A stretch of 51,166 nucleotides of DNA from IMG/VR virus record IMGVR_UViG_3300044638_003984; one strand, written 5' to 3'. The notes below the pieces were generated by a model, which was not told the origin of the DNA, did not search any database, and saw only the letters and a list, made by a program, of their open reading frames with translations. Source of the stretch: a virus (Duplodnaviria; Heunggongvirae; Uroviricota; Caudoviricetes). The position numbers and the translations under genes are program-made. Positions 3-35,756 of this stretch are shown piece by piece; the stretch's first letter is position 1; the number at the start of each line of letters is the position of its first letter.

Positions 3-1385
3 AACATAAGCACAACAATTAATACCTTCTATTTTTGTTGTGTTTGAAAATTCAACATCAATACTGTTGAGATATTCAACAAATCTACTCGATTCTGATT
101 GCCAATCAGAATAATTATACAACAAAACAGTTGATTCGTTTTGAATTAACCAATCAATAAGGTGTCTTGAAGATTCTTCTAAAAATCTACCATACATTAT
201 TATTGATAGGTCTATGTTTTTTTGTAACCAATCTGCAGATTTATTGAAAATATTTTGATTATAAAATTCACCAAAAGAAATATTTAAACCTATTCGATCA
301 AATCTTTCTTTATCTAATTCAACACCATATATATCTTTAATATCAAATTGTTTAGATATTTTCTTCAGTAATTCCGCATTACCGCAACCAAAATCTATAA
401 CATTCTTGAAAGATATTTGTGATTGCGTTAGTGCTTCAATAAGAATATTGTGACTATATTCCATAGATTCCAAAGAATAAAAACCATTATCTTTCCATAA
501 ATTATTTATGTTCAACGATCTCTTAAAGGATTTAGATTGCGTTATCTTTATTTTCGATTTATTAATATAAGGAAATGAAGTACCAGATGCTCCAAGTTCT
601 GGGTATGAGAAACCTTCTCTTTTGACTTCATATAATTCAGCTGTTGCATCTGTTCTTGAGGATATCTTTAATATCGGCGATTTTATTTCCGCAATTCCAT
701 GTAATGCAGACCAACTTACAGGCCAATCTAACATTTCTTCAATTACATCGATATCTTCATCATATCCTAAAGAACGACCAAATTCTAAATATTTTCTTCC
801 CAATTCATATGTATGTTGACAATTAAAAGAACATGGAAGATGACTAACAGCTCTAATACCAATCCATCTTAGAAGAATATTACATTCCTTTGGTCCAACA
901 GTACCTGCTAAACTCATTGGATAAGTGGTATCTACGAATTGCTCATCTACCCAATATTTCTTGAAGAAATCCGTACAACATTTCGGATAACCTAATAATC
1001 TACCAATTTCTTCATCATTATTAGTATTCCAAGCAGATAACCAAGAATCAACATAATCCTTATGTAAGAGGACGCATCGAACTGTGTAATTATACTTATC
1101 CGTTGTAATCTGTGATGTATTACTATATTGATCGGTTGCTTTTGTTTTGATTAGAGGTATTAATCTAAATTCTGAAGAAGAAAGAGATATTTGTTTGTCT
1201 ATGAAGTCAGAATGAGACATAGAAGTCAAATTGGCAGGTTTAATACCTACCAATACTAATTCTTGTTCTATGTTTTGGAATGCTTGCGAAGCTTTCTGTA
1301 TTTTGGGTTCCCAGAAACTTTTTGCTGGTTCACTAACCCAAATAATGCGTGTCCAATCGTGCAATAAAAAATTCAATCTATTCAT
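3..1385 (-). CDS. DUF483-like Cys-motif domain fused to a class I SAM-dependent methyltransferase domain (3' end runs off the window; absent from the ORF track)
   Basis: Hand translation from the ATG at 1385 is open for 461 codons to the window edge (MNRLNFLLHDWTRIIWVSEPAKSFWEPK...). It contains IGRLLGYPKCCTDFF (GYPKCC at 975-992), HLPCSFNC, and SAM-binding motif I VIDFGCGNAELL (381-395) followed by IYGVELD. Confidence 0.85.
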   Translation of the reverse strand, partial: MNRLNFLLHDWTRIIWVSEPAKSFWEPKIQKASQAFQNIEQELVLVGIKPANLTSMSHSDFIDKQISLSSSEFRLIPLIKTKATDQYSNTSQITTDKYNYTVRCVLLHKDYVDSWLSAWNTNNDEEIGRLLGYPKCCTDFFKKYWVDEQFVDTTYPMSLAGTVGPKECNILLRWIGIRAVSHLPCSFNCQHTYELGRKYLEFGRSLGYDEDIDVIEEMLDWPVSWSALHGIAEIKSPILKISSRTDATAELYEVKREGFSYPELGASGTSFPYINKSKIKITQSKSFKRSLNINNLWKDNGFYSLESMEYSHNILIEALTQSQISFKNVIDFGCGNAELLKKISKQFDIKDIYGVELDKERFDRIGLNISFGEFYNQNIFNKSADWLQKNIDLSIIMYGRFLEESSRHLIDWLIQNESTVLLYNYSDWQSESSRFVEYLNSIDVEFSNTTKIEGINCCAYV

Positions 1386-1397
1386 ATAGATTACTTA

Positions 1398-1985
1398 TTA
1401 AGCAGTAGAATCTCCATGTACAAATTGTGGATAATCTATATGTGTATCATAAAATCCAGTTTCTATATCTGCATGTTCTGATGATGTATCAGAGAAATCT
1501 TGGTGAGATCCAAGATTCAAATAAGAATCAACGTGTAAACCGGGGACCGTAGAGAAGTCATTATGATTTGTATATGAGTCCCCATGTGCCCCACTATCTG
1601 AATGTGTTGAAGACAGATCTTCATGATCAGAATAACTACCATTATCGGTGTGCCCATCATCTTGATGATAAGTGACTTTATATTTCTGCGATCCCGTCGA
1701 ATATGTTGTTGATATGCAAAGTTTAGAAGATTCTATCCAAATAGATCCATTGATAGAAGAATCAATTCCAGTTGGTGTTGATAACGAATAATAATTTAAT
1801 ATTCTTTCATAGTTAGAAGAATCGATATATCTTATGAATAAATCCGAATCAGTCCAAATTGATCCTGGAATAGCTCCACTTCGATAATCGCCAATGGAAC
1901 CGAGATATCGATATGTTTGTCCATATTGTGGGCTGAAGTATAAATAATCTCCTTCAACCCATAATGATCCTATTGTTATTGCCAT
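1398..1985 (-). CDS. His-X-Asp repeat protein with an N-terminal domain carrying three GS(L/I)W motifs
   Basis: All 11 histidines lie in the C-terminal 89 aa and each is in an H-x-D triplet. The gene directly follows the tail fibre gene. Confidence 0.85.
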   Translation of the reverse strand: MAITIGSLWVEGDYLYFSPQYGQTYRYLGSIGDYRSGAIPGSIWTDSDLFIRYIDSSNYERILNYYSLSTPTGIDSSINGSIWIESSKLCISTTYSTGSQKYKVTYHQDDGHTDNGSYSDHEDLSSTHSDSGAHGDSYTNHNDFSTVPGLHVDSYLNLGSHQDFSDTSSEHADIETGFYDTHIDYPQFVHGDSTA

Positions 1986-1991
1986 ATATTA

Positions 1992-1999
1992 TATTTATG
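1992..1999 (-). promoter_or_regulatory. T4-type late promoter variant (CATAAATA) upstream of the HxD gene
   Basis: One mismatch to the T4 late consensus TATAAATA. It overlaps the tail fibre stop codon, 7 nt before the ATG. AT-rich DNA makes a chance match possible. Confidence 0.45.
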
Positions 2000-4900
2000 T
2001 TGCCCAGTAATTTGTTCCGACTGGAATTACCAATCTATATGAAGAACCAGAACCAGAAACCTTTCCTGTAAATACTGCTTGTCCAGAACTTCCTGGTGCA
2101 GATGTTCCAACACCAAGACTACTAAATTGTATGTTCTTTGTTGATGTGTAACTAGTCCAATTATTTTCTGTTAAGATAGTATATGCAACGGCTCCCATTG
2201 ACCATCCACCAACTTTAAGATCAGTTCCGTCTAATCCAAAGTATACTGCACCTACCCCTGGTCTGTGGAAGGCCATAAATGCTGCATTTGTTCCAGAACC
2301 ACCATAAACTTCAATACCACCTAATGAACCAGTGGATGTTGCTAAGCCTGTTCCTGGGGCAGTTGATTGAGAAGCACTAGCTAGTATTCTACCAGAGAAC
2401 GAACCAGTTGTAGCATTCACGCTTCCACCTGAAAGATTAGTTGCTGTTGTAGCTGTAGTTGCGTTTCCTGATAATGTAGCTGTAATTGTTCCAGCTGAGA
2501 AGTTACCAGAAGAGTCTCTTAACACAATTTGACTTGCGCTATTAGTTGAAGAAGCTGTAATTGTAGCAGAGTTGGCTTGTCCAGATATAGTTGAAGCTTG
2601 GCCATTTATGTTCATTGTTTGGCCACTTATAAATGAAGCAACTTTTGCAGCAGTTGCAGATCGGAAATAATTATCTCCAAATTTAGCCATAATATATGTT
2701 ATCGTACCAACACTAATATCATCAGTAGAATTAACATAATTTGCATTAATATATCTAGCATTAAAATCGCCATTTCCATCCCTCAAAACAATCTGGTTTG
2801 CAATATTAGAAGCAGTAGCAGTAATTGTAGCTGAATTAGCTTGCCCTGAAATATTAGATGCTGTAGTTGCTGTAGAAGCGTTTCCAGAAAGGTTTGCTGC
2901 AATTGTTCCTGCGGAGAAGTTACCAGAAGCATCTCTTGTAACTATTGCGTTTGCTGTATTGGCTGAGGTTGCTGTAGTTGCAGAGTTTGGAATAGAAGTT
3001 AAAGAAGCACCTGAACCGGAGAATAATCCAGCTGTAATTGTTCCTGCAGAGAAGTTACCAGAAGCATCTCTGAGAACAATTTGAGATCCAATATTAGAAG
3101 CAGTAGCAGTAATTGTAGCCGAATTAGCTTGTCCGGAAATGGAAGTAGCAGTTGTAGCGGTAGATGCATTTCCAGATAGATTTGCTGTAATTGTTCCTGC
3201 AGAGAAGTTACCAGAAGCATCTCTAGCAACAACATTAGAGGTACCAGAAGTTGATGCATTTACTGCAATAGTTACTGCAGAAGATCCATTGTATGAACCA
3301 CCAGTTAAGAAAGAACCTATTGTCAATGTTGCTAAATTAGATCCTAGTGCTATTCCAGATATTGTAGAATTGACTAATGCAGAATTTGGGATAGTAGTTA
3401 ACCCAGCACCCGAACCAGAGAATGTATTTGCTGCAATTGTGCCGATAACTTGTAGAGCTTGAGATGGTGTTGATGTTCCTATACCAATTCTATTGTTTGT
3501 TGCATCTACAAACAATGTAGGATCGGTTCCTGAATTTGTATCAACAGTTAGGGCAGATATGGTTGCTCTTGTTCCATCAAAAGTAAAGTTTGATGAACCT
3601 GTTAAAGTTCCTGAAGAATTATATTGAACTTGTGTATTAGAACCTCCAACTGAGGCAACGTTAATACTACCACCAAGAGAAACTGAAGTACCATTTATTG
3701 TAATAGAAGAATTCGCTAATTTATTATTAGCAATCGATCCAGATAACATATCATTTGTTACAACACCCGTACCAATAGTTGTTGTTAGAGATACATTACC
3801 AGAACCATTAAATGAGACAGCAGTTGCAGTTACATTTCCAGTTAATGAGAACGTTCTGGAATTCTGTAGAGTAGTTGCTGAAGAAGCTGTTCCATTTAGT
3901 GTTGCTGTAATTGTTCCTGCAGAGAAGTTACCAGAAGCATCTCTAGCAACTATTGCACTAGAAGTATTGGTTGAAACTGCACCAACAGCTGAGTTTGGAA
4001 TAGAAGTTAAAGAAGCACCTGAACCGGAGAATAATCCAGCTGTAATTGTTCCTGCAGAGAAGTTACCAGAAGCATCTCTCACAACAATACTGTCAGATGC
4101 ATATAATACTGTTCCGCCAGAACCAAAGGCAACAGTTGATGAATCCGTTCCAGTAAATGTTAGGGAATTTGAAATAGTTAGAGATTTATTGGCAGATAAT
4201 GTTAATGATGAACTAGATCCCAAAGCTAAAGTTGCTGCAGATGCTGGGGGAGTTATATTAATATTATTGTATGTCTTATTTGTTAATGCTTCAGAACCAG
4301 CTAAAGTTGCAAGAGTACCTGTTGTTGGAAGAGTTACATTAGATGTATCAGATAGAGTAAGTGTTAGGGCATATGCCCCAGATGTTATTAAATTACCATC
4401 AAGAGTTATTGTCTTTCCTGCATTATTAACACCAGTTCCACCATATTGACCAGTAATTACTGTTGCATTCCATGTTCCAGTTGCGATAGTACCAACAGAT
4501 GTTAATGAAGAATTGATTACACTTGAACCTAGAGTTGTAGAAGATAATGTGGAAGTACCATTTATTCTATACACGCTTCCAGTAGTGATATTGATGTCAC
4601 CAGAAATATCTACTTTATAAGATGGAGAAGATATTCCTATACCGACATTGCCAGAACTTGAGAATGTAGCAATAGCAGTGCCAGCAGAATTATTGTTGTT
4701 CCAAGTACCACAAAACACATCCAAGCAGTAGTTTGCGCTGGTGTCATGGCGAGGCTGTAATCTAGCCATGATAGAGTTTGTATATCCACCATTGGTGTTT
4801 GCATTCCAGGTCAGAGCCGCCCCACTTGTGGCCACTGTGTACACCATGTTGGTGCCAGCACTAAGAGTGACATCGCCGTTGAGGCCACCGACAGCACCAC

Positions 4901-6569
4901 CGACAGCACCTACATGTAGTGTGGTTAATGGACTCGTCGTTCCAATACCGACCTTACCATCAATACCAATTCTTAAGACAGATGTCGATGAACCGCCAGA
5001 TGTTTCGAAAGAAGCAATTGCTCCAGTATCATTTAAACCATCATTTCTTGATACGACTCTTAATGTTTTGCCAGAATTAACTCCAGAAGATCCTCTATCA
5101 TCTAGGATATAAACCCCATCTGCAGATCCACCAGAAGTTCTTGAGAGATTAATAAATGTATTAACTGTATCTGTATTGTTGGATACAGCGAACAATCCAT
5201 TAGTTGTAGTAGAAGTTCCTATGGCTATAGCACCATCTGAAGCAATTCGAATTCTTTCTGTACCACCAGTAGAAGCTGCAATTGTATCTTCAGCTGGGAA
5301 CCAGAAACCAGTATTAAGATCACCAGTATTAGTTATGGAAGGAGCAGAAACAGATCCATCTCCAAATGCCCCAACACCAGCTACAGTTAATAATGCATCT
5401 GGATTAATTGTTCCGATACCAATTTCACCAGTTGATATTATTCTTATTCTTTCTACACCACCAGTAGAAGCTGCAATAGTATTTGATAGCGGGAACCAGA
5501 AACCAGTATCTAAATCTCCAGTATTTGTAATCGATGGAAATCCAGTAGCACCATCACCAAAGGCACCAACTCCGGATACAGTTAATAATGCATCTGGGGA
5601 TGTTGTACCTAAACCTAGTCTATTATTAGTATCATCCCAATATAGATTTGTTGTATCCCATGTATACGAATCAGTTGGTGAACCAAATAATACAGCACCA
5701 GTAGGAACATCTGGTGTAATTGCAGATATTTTAATTTTCTTTAATGAAGAAGAATCATATACAAGAAGATAATCAGTTGCTCTTGTTGTATCTGTTAATG
5801 ACGTAATTTCTGATTTGTTTTCGATCGATCCGATAGTTAATGACGCAATCACATCAGAATACATTTGTGGTGTAAGTACTGCACCAGTTCCACCACTAGT
5901 TGGTGTTATTGTGATTGTTGGTAGAGAAGAATAACCATAACCACCATCAACTACCGTCTTACCATTTATATTACCAGATCCAACTGTAACTGTTGCTCTA
6001 GCATTTCTACCAACGAATAACCAATTATTTGCCAAACCATTTGAATGTAGAGGAACTATTGAATTATTCGGAATTGCTGTTGTTGCTTTATAGAATTTGT
6101 ATGATACACCTGTTGCACCAGGAATAGCGAATGCGCTCGAAACAATAGTTCCTGCATTGAATCCAGTAGATCCAACAACAGAATCAATAGTTGTTCCAGT
6201 TGCACCAGGAAAACCAGTAGATCCAACATATGGATTTGAAAAAGTAATAGTTGGGGCAGCAGAATAACTTATACCAGCGTCAGTAATTTTTATATCTCTT
6301 ACAATTTGATTATTAGATGGAATTGTTACTGTTAGATCGCCTAAATTTTGATAGGGTGAATCTGTATTATAATAAGTTCCAAAAGCTTTATTTGTATTAG
6401 TTAGAGATGGAGAATATTGACCCCAATAGACAATAAATTCTCCAGTATTAAATGGTTCTACAGTAGTAAGTGTACCTTTTCCAACTAACTCAAATTGTTC
6501 AAATCCTTCATTTACTTTAGAAGCCCATTGATTAAGAGTATCACTATTTTTTAATCTTGGTAAAGACAT
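1995..6569 (-). CDS. Long tail fibre protein (1524 aa), modular
   Basis: N-terminus MSLPRLKNSDTLNQW is typical of T4-like fibre attachment segments. It has repeated 'G.VGIGT.SP' beta modules and seven RD(A/S/G)(S/N)G(N/D)F(S/N)A repeats, is Gly/Ser/Thr-rich, and lies after the baseplate genes. Confidence 0.85.
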   Translation of the reverse strand: MSLPRLKNSDTLNQWASKVNEGFEQFELVGKGTLTTVEPFNTGEFIVYWGQYSPSLTNTNKAFGTYYNTDSPYQNLGDLTVTIPSNNQIVRDIKITDAGISYSAAPTITFSNPYVGSTGFPGATGTTIDSVVGSTGFNAGTIVSSAFAIPGATGVSYKFYKATTAIPNNSIVPLHSNGLANNWLFVGRNARATVTVGSGNINGKTVVDGGYGYSSLPTITITPTSGGTGAVLTPQMYSDVIASLTIGSIENKSEITSLTDTTRATDYLLVYDSSSLKKIKISAITPDVPTGAVLFGSPTDSYTWDTTNLYWDDTNNRLGLGTTSPDALLTVSGVGAFGDGATGFPSITNTGDLDTGFWFPLSNTIAASTGGVERIRIISTGEIGIGTINPDALLTVAGVGAFGDGSVSAPSITNTGDLNTGFWFPAEDTIAASTGGTERIRIASDGAIAIGTSTTTNGLFAVSNNTDTVNTFINLSRTSGGSADGVYILDDRGSSGVNSGKTLRVVSRNDGLNDTGAIASFETSGGSSTSVLRIGIDGKVGIGTTSPLTTLHVGAVGGAVGGLNGDVTLSAGTNMVYTVATSGAALTWNANTNGGYTNSIMARLQPRHDTSANYCLDVFCGTWNNNNSAGTAIATFSSSGNVGIGISSPSYKVDISGDINITTGSVYRINGTSTLSSTTLGSSVINSSLTSVGTIATGTWNATVITGQYGGTGVNNAGKTITLDGNLITSGAYALTLTLSDTSNVTLPTTGTLATLAGSEALTNKTYNNINITPPASAATLALGSSSSLTLSANKSLTISNSLTFTGTDSSTVAFGSGGTVLYASDSIVVRDASGNFSAGTITAGLFSGSGASLTSIPNSAVGAVSTNTSSAIVARDASGNFSAGTITATLNGTASSATTLQNSRTFSLTGNVTATAVSFNGSGNVSLTTTIGTGVVTNDMLSGSIANNKLANSSITINGTSVSLGGSINVASVGGSNTQVQYNSSGTLTGSSNFTFDGTRATISALTVDTNSGTDPTLFVDATNNRIGIGTSTPSQALQVIGTIAANTFSGSGAGLTTIPNSALVNSTISGIALGSNLATLTIGSFLTGGSYNGSSAVTIAVNASTSGTSNVVARDASGNFSAGTITANLSGNASTATTATSISGQANSATITATASNIGSQIVLRDASGNFSAGTITAGLFSGSGASLTSIPNSATTATSANTANAIVTRDASGNFSAGTIAANLSGNASTATTASNISGQANSATITATASNIANQIVLRDGNGDFNARYINANYVNSTDDISVGTITYIMAKFGDNYFRSATAAKVASFISGQTMNINGQASTISGQANSATITASSTNSASQIVLRDSSGNFSAGTITATLSGNATTATTATNLSGGSVNATTGSFSGRILASASQSTAPGTGLATSTGSLGGIEVYGGSGTNAAFMAFHRPGVGAVYFGLDGTDLKVGGWSMGAVAYTILTENNWTSYTSTKNIQFSSLGVGTSAPGSSGQAVFTGKVSGSGSSYRLVIPVGTNYWAT
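2983..4079. repeat. 89-bp exact direct repeat (2983-3071 and 3991-4079) within a family of shorter RDASGNFSAGTI-coding repeats
   Basis: gagtttggaatagaag...ccagaagcatctct is identical in both copies, 1008 bp apart and in frame. Confidence 0.9.
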
Positions 6570-33692: not shown

Positions 33693-34449
33693 TCAATTTA
33701 CTCCATTTCACTTTTTTATGTAGCGATTTACCAAATCCATTATATTGAATTATTAGATTAGGATTATTCCATTTTTCTTCTATATATTTAATATTATTCA
33801 ATAAATTTTCTTCTTTCCTAATATTTAGATCATAACCACCAACTCCGTTATTTTTGTAATTGCCACGATTAATCATATGAAAGTTTACAAGAAATTTATT
33901 GAATTTCAATAGACCACCATATTTAATATGGTGCGCCACAACATAATCGAAATCTTCTATACAAGAAACATCGTTATCGAATCTAACATTATCTTGTGAT
34001 TTATGTAAAATAAACTGACCGCTGATCATACCTTTCTTTGAAATAGAATCGTTGGCATAAAATGGATTTGTGTTAGAAGTTACTCCAGCGATATAATAAG
34101 GAGAAACAGATAATTGTGAATACATTTCGTCGATAATTTGAGACAAATGCATATCTTTGGATTTCTTCTTACCATTCACAATATCTAACACCTTAGAAGA
34201 TATCCAATCATCATCCATTGTAACACAATATGTATTTCTATTAAAGGAGAAATCTAAAGCAGCATTCAACTGCTTCGATTTCATTGGAAGTGTTCCTTCA
34301 ACAGGAATTACATTTTTTGCACCAGCTTCTTTATATGAATTTTCGCTTCCCTTTGGAACAAACCAAAAGTGTTCTACATCAGACAATACTTTTGACATTA
34401 CAGGAACTGTAAAAGACCTATTTGCAGATTGAATCGTATATGTAATCAT
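33685..34449 (-). CDS. TET/JBP-associated GT-A glycosyltransferase 2
   Basis: IQSANR, TMDDD, N.FY, EDFDY..AHHIKYGG..KFN and N.GVGG motifs; paralogous layout to the adjacent GT. Confidence 0.65.
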   Translation of the reverse strand: MITYTIQSANRSFTVPVMSKVLSDVEHFWFVPKGSENSYKEAGAKNVIPVEGTLPMKSKQLNAALDFSFNRNTYCVTMDDDWISSKVLDIVNGKKKSKDMHLSQIIDEMYSQLSVSPYYIAGVTSNTNPFYANDSISKKGMISGQFILHKSQDNVRFDNDVSCIEDFDYVVAHHIKYGGLLKFNKFLVNFHMINRGNYKNNGVGGYDLNIRKEENLLNNIKYIEEKWNNPNLIIQYNGFGKSLHKKVKWSKLNE

Positions 34450-35756
34450 TAGATATCCAATACACCTGCTTTTCTACCATAAATCTTTTCTTCAATCTCG
34501 GCAGCAAATTCATGCAGACCATTATCTACTAGATATTTGTACCATTCTTCAGTATATTCCCATCCAGCTGATACACCATTCCATCTTTCATGCCAAAGAG
34601 GATGATTCTTATTCTTTCTTCTAGACTCGATGAAATTGTATCTAGTATCTTCATAAGTCTTAGACCTACAATCTGCCATTTTCTCACGCATATAACATAC
34701 AATAGAAATTCTTTCATGTAAACCGGATTCTGAAGAGATTGGCGTGTTACCATGAATCTCATGAATATCCATAGCAAGAAAATCGCCAGGCTTCACTGAA
34801 ACAGCTGCACGATATTCAGGGAAGATTAAATAACAACCATTCCAATCAACACCATTATAAGTTGTAGTTAGATTGCCAAATCCACCCTTGAAATCACCAG
34901 CATCTCTATGCGCCGCAGTACGATAATTCTTATTCACTGTTACAGTTGTATAAACAGATTCACCAATTCTGAAGGCTGGATCTAGATGAGACATAGCTTC
35001 TTTTTGAACTTCAAATCTTCCTGGAACCAATTCTCGGAATTGTTCAGAAACAGCTTCAATAAATGGAATTGCTTTTTCAAACTTCTCTTTATTATTAGCT
35101 GTATATGATGTTAGTCTACAATACGGTATCCTCGGATATTTGTCGTAGGAACCCGCAATACCAGAGAATACAGGATTAGCATAAGAAGTATCAGAGATCC
35201 AATCATTAATAATTTCTACTTCTTTCATACGTTCTTCATATGATAGAAGAGCAGTCTTATGAACCCAAGAATCAAAATCAAATCCTTCTGGTCTCTTAAG
35301 AGTTAACCAGACTCGACCTCGTGCAGAAACTTCTTCCGGATTCTTCTTGAATTTTTCATAAGCTTCAGCAATTGGATCTTCAGATGTAACTGTAGTCATA
35401 GAACCAGATAAGATATCAATCAATCTTTCTTGAAGAGCTGTAACCCAATCTCTTCTAGTAGATTTTTCAGTTCTAGGACCAGCAGCAATACCACGATTTT
35501 GAGATTCACCAGCAGCTTCTTTCAAACCTTCATAAGCCATCTGCACTAGCTCTGGTGGAAATACTCCTTTTCTAAATTTAAGAAGTAGATTATGTTCACC
35601 ATTTTGGATAACATTTCCTTCTGCATCAATCGTATGTTCTAGAGGTTTGTATACATCACAATCTTCTTCAATCAACATATCATAATGATTATCGTCTAAA
35701 AAATGACCGAGAATTGATTCATCAGGATATTTCTTTTCTAAATAAATAGTTTTCAT
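34449..35756 (-). CDS. 2-oxoglutarate/Fe(II) dioxygenase of the TET/JBP family
   Basis: YTTVTVNKNYRTAAHRDAGD (HxD), PGDFLAMDIHEIHGNT (distal His) and RISIVCYMRE (2OG-binding Arg). Confidence 0.85.
   Translation of the reverse strand: MKTIYLEKKYPDESILGHFLDDNHYDMLIEEDCDVYKPLEHTIDAEGNVIQNGEHNLLLKFRKGVFPPELVQMAYEGLKEAAGESQNRGIAAGPRTEKSTRRDWVTALQERLIDILSGSMTTVTSEDPIAEAYEKFKKNPEEVSARGRVWLTLKRPEGFDFDSWVHKTALLSYEERMKEVEIINDWISDTSYANPVFSGIAGSYDKYPRIPYCRLTSYTANNKEKFEKAIPFIEAVSEQFRELVPGRFEVQKEAMSHLDPAFRIGESVYTTVTVNKNYRTAAHRDAGDFKGGFGNLTTTYNGVDWNGCYLIFPEYRAAVSVKPGDFLAMDIHEIHGNTPISSESGLHERISIVCYMREKMADCRSKTYEDTRYNFIESRRKNKNHPLWHERWNGVSAGWEYTEEWYKYLVDNGLHEFAAEIEEKIYGRKAGVLDI

Follow-up and report, generated by a model that had tools for sequence, protein, structure and literature searches.

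A His-x-Asp repeat protein encoded behind a phage tail fiber gene is a probable substrate of a linked radical SAM module

Why should a tailed phage encode, behind its tail fiber gene, a protein in which every histidine is followed two residues later by an aspartate? The question is raised by a 51,166-nt stretch of viral DNA (Caudoviricetes; IMG/VR record IMGVR_UViG_3300044638_003984; this whole stretch is hereafter called the window). On its minus strand, at 1398..1985, an open reading frame (ORF) encodes a 195-aa protein (P0001, hereafter the HxD protein) that belongs to a family of at least 88 sequence clusters with the same architecture. Our analysis makes it likely that its array of His-x-Asp (HxD) triplets is a substrate of a module built around a radical S-adenosylmethionine (rSAM) enzyme. 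A fuller account, in which the protein is the substrate of a phage-encoded maturation module where a DUF483 partner protein assists the rSAM enzyme and methylation also takes place, is as a whole the explanation that we favor, with distinctly less assurance.

The pattern in the protein is strict. All 11 His residues lie within residues 107–190 and all of them are H-x-D (in order HQD, HTD, HED, HSD, HGD, HND, HVD, HQD, HAD, HID, HGD), and the spacers from Asp to the next His are 2–8 aa long. The array as a whole, residues 107–192 (1410..1667, minus strand), also contains the aromatic triplets YSD (residue 118), FSD (164) and FYD (178), and is the region where we propose the modification sites. 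Residues 1–106 (1668..1985, minus strand) contain no His and show the GS[LI]W repeat three times, at residues 6, 41 and 80. The first-pass annotation had described the H-x-D histidines of the C-terminal half, the variable spacers with YSD and FSD, and the His-free repeats of the N-terminal half, and the translation bears out each of these points, with FYD as an addition. When the C-terminal 95 residues were shuffled 100,000 times, 11 HxD were never reached and the maximum was 7, so the motif is far beyond chance. HxS and HxH motifs are both absent from the protein, and neither the entire sequence nor its N-terminal domain (N-domain) alone matched any family in Pfam, PHROGs or NCBIfam.

How is such a protein built? 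AlphaFold2 modeled residues 1–110 as an all-beta domain with high confidence (block-mean predicted local distance difference test, pLDDT, of 86–98), left the HxD array without a fixed structure (pLDDT about 50) and regained confidence at the C-terminus, with block means of 85 for residues 181–190 and 76 for residues 191–195 and a strand at 187–191 that overlaps a conserved P-x-[FY]-V motif (YPQFV, residues 185–189; 1419..1433, minus strand). In this model, then, the array resembles a lengthy detour between two structured parts, a folded domain and a C-terminal strand, and the earlier idea of a folded carrier domain plus a multi-site core fits it. The repeat residues G6, S7, W9, G41, S42, W44, G80, S81 and W83 are nearly invariant across the family. 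Foldseek searches with the model gave no match in the PDB at E ≤ 0.001 and only a single uncharacterized homolog among the AlphaFold database clusters. A beta-prism II lectin fold was considered for the N-domain and rejected, the best matches of a wide VIA search (LLPA, Z 4.6, rmsd 4.0, 89 aligned residues) being too weak.

If the array is a substrate, where is the enzyme? The window ends inside the next gene of the operon (3..1385, minus strand; cut by the window edge), which encodes the partner protein, a DUF483-like Cys/His domain (residues 1–270) joined to a class I SAM methyltransferase domain (from residue 285). An exact 47-mer from the window retrieved three IMG/VR contigs; one of them, L008, agrees with the window in every codon of the HxD gene and in the 461 partner codons that the window contains, and reaches 9.9 kb further left. 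On this contig the HxD gene is followed by the partner gene (476 aa), a 179-aa ORF and an rSAM gene (383 aa), tightly packed: the HxD and partner genes are 12 nt apart, the partner gene and the 179-aa ORF overlap by 4 nt, and the 179-aa ORF and the rSAM gene overlap by 17 nt. The radical SAM/SPASM gene with CxxxCxxC that the first-pass annotation had suspected just left of the window is thus present in the window's own phage, as read on L008 (Pfam Radical_SAM, E 2.2e-17). The 179-aa ORF, which gave no family match and no usable Atlas match, encodes a lineage-specific member of the module, and past the rSAM gene lie an oppositely oriented SegE homing endonuclease gene and T4-like replication genes.

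The same association of HxD repeats, DUF483-like protein and rSAM enzyme, which the first-pass annotation had envisaged, holds in unrelated phage lineages and in bacteria. A phmmer search against 1.84 billion representative sequences gave 88 matches, most of which show three G[ST]xW repeats and then an HxD tail of widely differing length, and most family members end with the consensus QPxxVG(P). Among 1585 tail His residues in 55 distinct members, the residue at +2 is D in 82% and N in 16% (D or N in 97%); the position between them is usually taken by T, S or G, His residues most often follow each other at a spacing of 5, and F-x-N and Y-x-D are also present. The two closest relatives (64% and 41% identity by phmmer) have the same partner and rSAM genes downstream, and the distant member L010 has an HExxH-like protein, an rSAM enzyme and a methyltransferase partner. 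When the N-domain alone, which contains no HxD, was used as the query, 44 IMG/VR loci were found, 29 of them distinct and with at least 3 kb of downstream DNA. At least five Hx[DN] were present in 28 of the 29, and 27 of these 28 have an orthologous rSAM gene starting within 1.5 kb together with the partner gene. The sole homolog with no HxD, L039, has neither enzyme gene and serves as a natural negative control. Each locus has a single rSAM gene, as seen gene by gene in L008, L002, L005 and L010 and as one orthologous match per IMG/VR locus by hidden Markov model search. In some phages, two to four HxD-array genes stand in a row before one rSAM gene (L013:4612-10000, L019:7280-8660), and these tandem genes include arrays rich in H-x-N and F-x-N.

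The linkage was also found in the reverse direction. A search of bacterial and archaeal genomes with an rSAM profile gave 80 loci, of which 28 have an orthologous rSAM gene and 52 have unrelated SPASM enzymes. An ORF with at least five Hx[DN] was present at 19 of the 28 orthologous loci versus 2 of the 52 others (Fisher p 9e-10), and the partner gene at 26 of the 28. HxD peptides of 63–155 aa are encoded directly upstream of the orthologous rSAM gene in Acidobacteriota and other bacteria, and some, at 63–77 aa, are precursor-like; examples of such bacterial genes are L062:5764-5973, L070:5761-5952, L068:5719-5952, L060:8693-9022 and L078:8277-8546. Some of the bacterial peptides consist of a conserved leader, 'FSRRxLIxAGWxVPV' (or 'RRxLIxAGWxVPV'), which resembles a twin-arginine signal, and a few HxD units. 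Judged from sequence, this anatomy is that of a classic precursor peptide and suggests a form of the phage system in which bacteria use peptides.

What could the enzyme do? The rSAM protein has a CX3CX2C motif (C12/C16/C19) and, across 34 orthologs, invariant C240, C245, C265, C299, C302, C308, C312 and C328, a SPASM pattern; the location of CxxxCxxC at the very start of the protein means that it lacks an N-terminal recognition domain. The NCBIfam models ranked anSME (anaerobic sulfatase-maturating enzyme; TIGR03942) at the top, followed by DynA, AmcB, PapB, YhhB, XyeB, GrrM and HxsB, and none of these models came near its cut-off. TIGR03942 scores the protein at 92.6 bits against a cut-off of 349, which places it outside the anSME family, and, though related to them, it also falls outside the curated triceptide synthase families XyeB, GrrM/OscB, YhhB, AmcB and FxsB (32–72 bits versus 310–450). 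Compared with solved structures, its profile matches the triceptide synthase domain of ChlB (E 4.4e-16). The best curated and solved relatives, namely anSME, DynA, AmcB, PapB, YhhB, XyeB and ChlB, act on peptides or proteins. Many of the rSAM enzymes themselves end in the same motif: 2–7 HxD units, typically HGDxPHGDSHGDHTD, occur in the last 45 residues of 30 of the 34 distinct orthologs (for example L029:8987-10222, L031:9835-11163 and L019:8677-10020), and the four orthologs without such a tail are those of the window's T4-like lineage. The enzyme could modify this tail itself, or the tail could mimic a substrate or bind metal.

Residues 95–194 of the partner protein match Pfam DUF483 (PF04467) at 31.7 bits, above the gathering cut-off of 25, and the Pfam methyltransferase matches of the window's copy are weak, just below their cut-offs. 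C136, C137, H182, C185 and C189 are invariant, and the motif I residues D331, G333, C334 and G335 are near-invariant. AlphaFold2 gave a two-domain model with a mean pLDDT of 90, for which Foldseek returned methyltransferases with a probability of 1.00; the nearest solved structures by profile comparison are plantazolicin N-methyltransferases (BpumL, E 8.5e-12). These fold searches were filled by the methyltransferase domain, and the DUF483 domain had no fold match. In the Thermus phage phiMa and two other lineages the partner has no methyltransferase part, which identifies the DUF483 domain as the core partner. Modeled together with the HxD protein, residues 1–290 of the partner gave a complex with an ipSAE of 0.62, versus 0.01 for the best of three controls; a mark of 0.62 is reached by 58 of 80 solved complexes and by 2 of 110 mismatched pairs. 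The model supports, but does not establish, binding of the DUF483 part to the N-domain of the HxD protein.

A different role has been proposed for these enzymes. Among cultured phages, tblastn found the HxD family only in the Thermus phages phiMa and Cumys, and megablast of 12 kb of the window against cultured phages gave no match. An 'rSAM module' consisting of an rSAM enzyme, a DUF483 protein and a third protein was reported to be conserved in Cumys, phiMa and prophages, with homologs that adjoin deazapurine DNA-modification genes in some cyanobacteria, and DNA modifications of unknown kind were proposed (PMC11437467). According to this view, the rSAM and DUF483/methyltransferase proteins of the window's phage would modify DNA and the HxD protein would be an unrelated neighbor. 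The module is indeed made of the same three gene families as ours, but its third gene is the HxD gene itself, the repeats of which go unmentioned there (PMC11437467). In phiMa, unlike in the window's phage, the partner is free of the methyltransferase part and the order is HxD, rSAM, partner. All 53 His residues of phiMa_29 are in HxD (the arrays reach 50–70 repeats), and the adjacent rSAM gene phiMa_28 (L001:6924-8174) was deposited with a start 114 nt too far downstream, which omits the cluster motif CNLACTYC; the corrected ORF, from the ATG at L001:6924, begins 9 nt past the HxD stop codon and restores CxxxCxxC. The SPASM architecture and the peptide or protein substrates of all close curated rSAM relatives, the nearest solved methyltransferases being those that N-methylate RiPPs (peptides made on the ribosome and modified after translation), and the short HxD peptides directly upstream of bacterial rSAM genes all speak against DNA as the target, and we regard this explanation as very improbable.

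Taking the array as the substrate, which chemistry would it undergo? Crosslinks from His-C2 to a C-beta on H-x-X motifs are established for the triceptide synthases HtkB (H-T-K) and HaaB (H-A-A) (PMC11499958). As in triceptide systems, a SPASM rSAM enzyme is encoded beside a substrate with repeated aromatic-X-X triplets, His being the aromatic residue, and in some HxD lineages an alpha-ketoglutarate (aKG)-HExxH-type protein accompanies the enzyme as in ChlB-type systems. The HxD module differs from them in its motif, H-x-D/N, in its substrate, a folded 195-aa fiber-linked protein (up to 1186 aa when fused), in an rSAM enzyme that has no N-terminal recognition domain and scores below every curated cut-off, and in its obligatory DUF483 partner, which is fused to a methyltransferase in the window's phage. 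The aKG-HExxH-type protein was seen inside the HxD/rSAM module in three lineages (L005:12036-12971, L010:8641-9384, L031:8697-9539); it matches TIGR04267 with E 1.6e-7, below the cut-off, and this type is known as a peptide beta-hydroxylase. The window's phage does not have it, and the unrelated 179-aa ORF takes its place.

A further comparison is with the HXS antiphage system, in which the His-Xaa-Ser repeats of HxsA are matured by the rSAM enzymes HxsB and HxsC, together with HxsD (PMC13128918). There too a His-x-X repeat protein rather than a small peptide is matured by rSAM chemistry and the matured protein is the functional end product. HXS, however, serves defense in bacteria; it has five HxS repeats and a peptidoglycan-binding domain, relies on two rSAM enzymes and shows a reported shift of +8 Da (PMC13128918), whereas the HxD module is phage-encoded and has 11 (up to about 70) HxD, one rSAM enzyme, a different partner and no HxS. 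Because of the analogy to the HtkB and HaaB crosslinks and to the HXS effector, a triceptide-like His-Asp crosslink is the chemistry that we favor, and a His-Asp cyclophane may be formed, to which we would give somewhat less than an even chance.

The array could also be an rSAM substrate for something else, such as an anSME-like C-beta oxidation of Asp/Asn, an epimerization or another C–H functionalization, followed by methylation. The sole full-length solved relative of the rSAM enzyme is anSME (PDB 4K36; E 1.2e-22, residues 4–356), which is also the top NCBIfam match as noted above; the two are laid out alike, CX3CX2C standing at the very N-terminus and a SPASM domain (in anSME with two auxiliary clusters) being present, and, as anSME does, the phage enzyme, having no N-terminal recognition domain, would act on a whole protein. 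The methyltransferase and, in some lineages, the HExxH hydroxylase-like protein would suit such a pathway. On the other hand, anSME oxidizes one Cys or Ser in the motif C/S-x-P-x-R to formylglycine, and this motif is absent from P0001. Aromatic-x-polar triplets repeated many times characterize the substrates of triceptide synthases (PMC11499958), the tails also contain F-x-N and Y-x-D, and the cyclophane synthases AmcB, YhhB, XyeB, GrrM and ChlB are prominent among the matches. We therefore consider these other chemistries unlikely, yet the most serious of the competing explanations.

Several results weigh against the maturation account. The rSAM enzyme reaches 72 of the 425 bits required for AmcB, 41 of 450 for XyeB and 41 of 370 for HxsB (TIGR03978), and its best full-length profile match, the anSME match just given, is to an oxidase and not a crosslinker. 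The substrate would be a folded 195-aa protein, not a short leader–core peptide. One locus, L012, has 40 Hx[DN] and no rSAM gene within 7–8 kb, a single exception, and at 9 of the 28 bacterial and archaeal rSAM-ortholog loci the nearby ORFs scanned have only 2–4 Hx[DN]. As for the complex, the three runs share only 1–23% of their contacts, with partner pLDDT values of at least 52, and several predicted interface residues (62–68) vary in near-identical phages in which the partner is invariant.

Where would the modified protein go? The gene directly upstream (1995..6569, minus strand) encodes a repeat-rich, fiber-like protein of 1524 aa, with matches to structural-protein and tail fiber PHROGs, and closes a T4-type baseplate operon that contains gp5, gp6, a gp7-like wedge protein, gp8 and a giant DUF4815 protein. 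The HxD gene had been placed after the tail fiber gene, and it does start 9 nt past the stop codon of this ORF. The 9-nt spacer (1986..1994, minus strand) contains a second in-frame TAA, so the two genes are truly split, and read-through from the fiber gene into the HxD gene, which lies in the same frame, was rejected on account of the two TAA codons in between. The fiber protein ends with the motif LVIPVGTNYWAT (1998..2033, minus strand), a conserved junction to the HxD module: in most loci the gene directly upstream of the HxD gene has a product that closes with [LI]V[IL]PVGx[DN]Kx[AV]T, and in fused members (P0018, P0025, P0034, P0047 and others) the PVG motif lies 10–12 residues before the first GSxW. 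In other phages the HxD arrays are found at the C-termini of recognized tail fiber proteins, such as a 1186-aa J-like fiber and a collagen-like fiber. Since the PVG motif is common to the split and fused forms, the fiber and HxD proteins of the window appear to be the split form of one polypeptide, which places the HxD protein probably at the C-terminal end of the 1524-aa fiber. That it is part of the virion, as these fusions to tail fiber proteins suggest, seems to us rather likely.

A late promoter ahead of the HxD gene, which the first-pass annotation had also proposed, did not hold up. The sequence CATAAATA at 1992-1999 (minus strand) overlaps the fiber stop codon and is distinct from TATAAATA, the late consensus of T4; the window contains it 4 times, versus 6 expected by chance, and a chance frequency and this overlap leave it without value as evidence for a promoter. 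The fiber gene itself contains many copies of approximately RDASGNFSAGTITA at window positions 2600-4100, where self-similar BLAST segments of 83–100% identity reveal that duplication within the gene is recent.

How the locus varies can be seen in L007 and L009, two close relatives of the window's phage. Non-synonymous changes affect 21 of 195 codons in the HxD gene, 0–2 of 461 in the partner gene and 0–1 of 384 in the rSAM gene. None of those in the HxD gene falls on a motif His or Asp (p about 0.02), and one, Y118H, creates a twelfth HxD in a close relative. The last large domain of the fiber (window 2066-2608, residues about 1321–1501) is swapped in L007 for a shorter unrelated segment; L007 is otherwise 98–99% identical and keeps the final 23 fiber residues with the PVG motif. 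Comparing these alleles, a variable HxD gene beside a swapped fiber domain fits a host-interaction cassette. Positive selection does not follow from these changes, as the ratios of non-synonymous to synonymous changes, 21:9 and 21:25, look like a diverged or recombinant allele and not like dN/dS > 1.

Could the HxD protein simply be an unmodified, metal-binding fiber tip or adhesin, similar to the HxH iron sites of T4 gp37, with the enzymes acting elsewhere? His and Asp are well known as metal ligands, the gene lies behind the fiber gene in the position of T2-type gp38 adhesins, and it diverges between near-identical phages while the partner gene hardly changes. With gp38 and gp37 it shares a small gene after the distal fiber gene, His-based motifs on a fiber tip and a conserved scaffold motif that alternates with variable spacers. 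Unlike them, it has no sequence or fold similarity to either, no glycine-rich motifs and no HxH, and the N-domain is modeled as a single-chain three-repeat unit followed by an unstructured array, not as a trimeric needle. Furthermore, gp38 and gp37 need no modifying enzymes, while the HxD array is linked to the rSAM and partner genes in both search directions and both enzymes are lost where the array is absent. Metal binding and enzymatic modification are compatible with each other, and a tip without modification appears quite improbable.

The same position behind the fiber gene would suit an assembly factor. Assembly chaperones that vary together with the fiber tip are often encoded right after fiber genes, and in some phages C-terminal fiber extensions act as intramolecular chaperones that are cleaved off. 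The HxD protein could accordingly be a C-terminal chaperone domain that has split off, works while the fiber tip folds and does not stay in the particle; the HxD module is a C-terminal fiber extension in other phages, and the fiber's last large domain is swapped in L007. It would, however, be unusual for a transient chaperone to have a conserved maturation system of two enzymes dedicated to it, arrays of 50–70 repeats are hard to explain in this way, and library scans found neither a protease nor an S74 domain, so that we hold this possibility to be improbable, if less so than the unmodified tip.

Returning to maturation of the HxD protein, we can outline how the parts might work together. The folded three-repeat N-domain would attach the HxD protein to the 1524-aa fiber at the C-terminal end of the latter and may also be the recognition target of the partner. 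The rSAM enzyme, helped by the DUF483 partner, would abstract a hydrogen at each H-x-D unit and link His-C2 to Asp-C-beta, giving up to 11–14 small rings, and the methyltransferase domain would add methyl groups. The product would be a stiff, acidic, possibly metal-chelating array of loops on the host-contacting part of the fiber, in which the cyclophane rings, as pre-organized pairs of imidazole and carboxylate, might chelate metal. In its furthest form, this would be RiPP-type radical chemistry on the phage's own particle, with the array turned into cyclophane rings that act as a host-range element and the same enzyme family making short secreted HxD peptides in bacteria, a single chemistry then being shared by peptide natural products and the armor of virions; we offer this only tentatively.

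Elsewhere in the window, a 435-aa protein (34449-35756, minus strand) contains a Tet/JBP 2-oxoglutarate (2OG)-Fe dioxygenase domain (E 2.2e-22), a similarity that suggests oxidative DNA base modification in the window's phage.

In our literature search, PMC11437467 was the sole paper found on the rSAM/DUF483 module, no paper was found on phage HxD arrays or rSAM-modified tail proteins, and we found no demonstration of an rSAM-dependent modification of a virion protein. The module can be tested, as two cultured Thermus phages, phiMa and Cumys, possess it. If the proposed maturation is true, it would add a new layer to tail fiber biology and to the evolution of host range, establish H-x-D as a new class of probable cyclophane substrate, in which folded proteins carry up to about 70 sites, and give DUF483 a role. 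It would also connect the structural genes of phages with RiPP chemistry and with the logic of HXS defense, which has been described recently.

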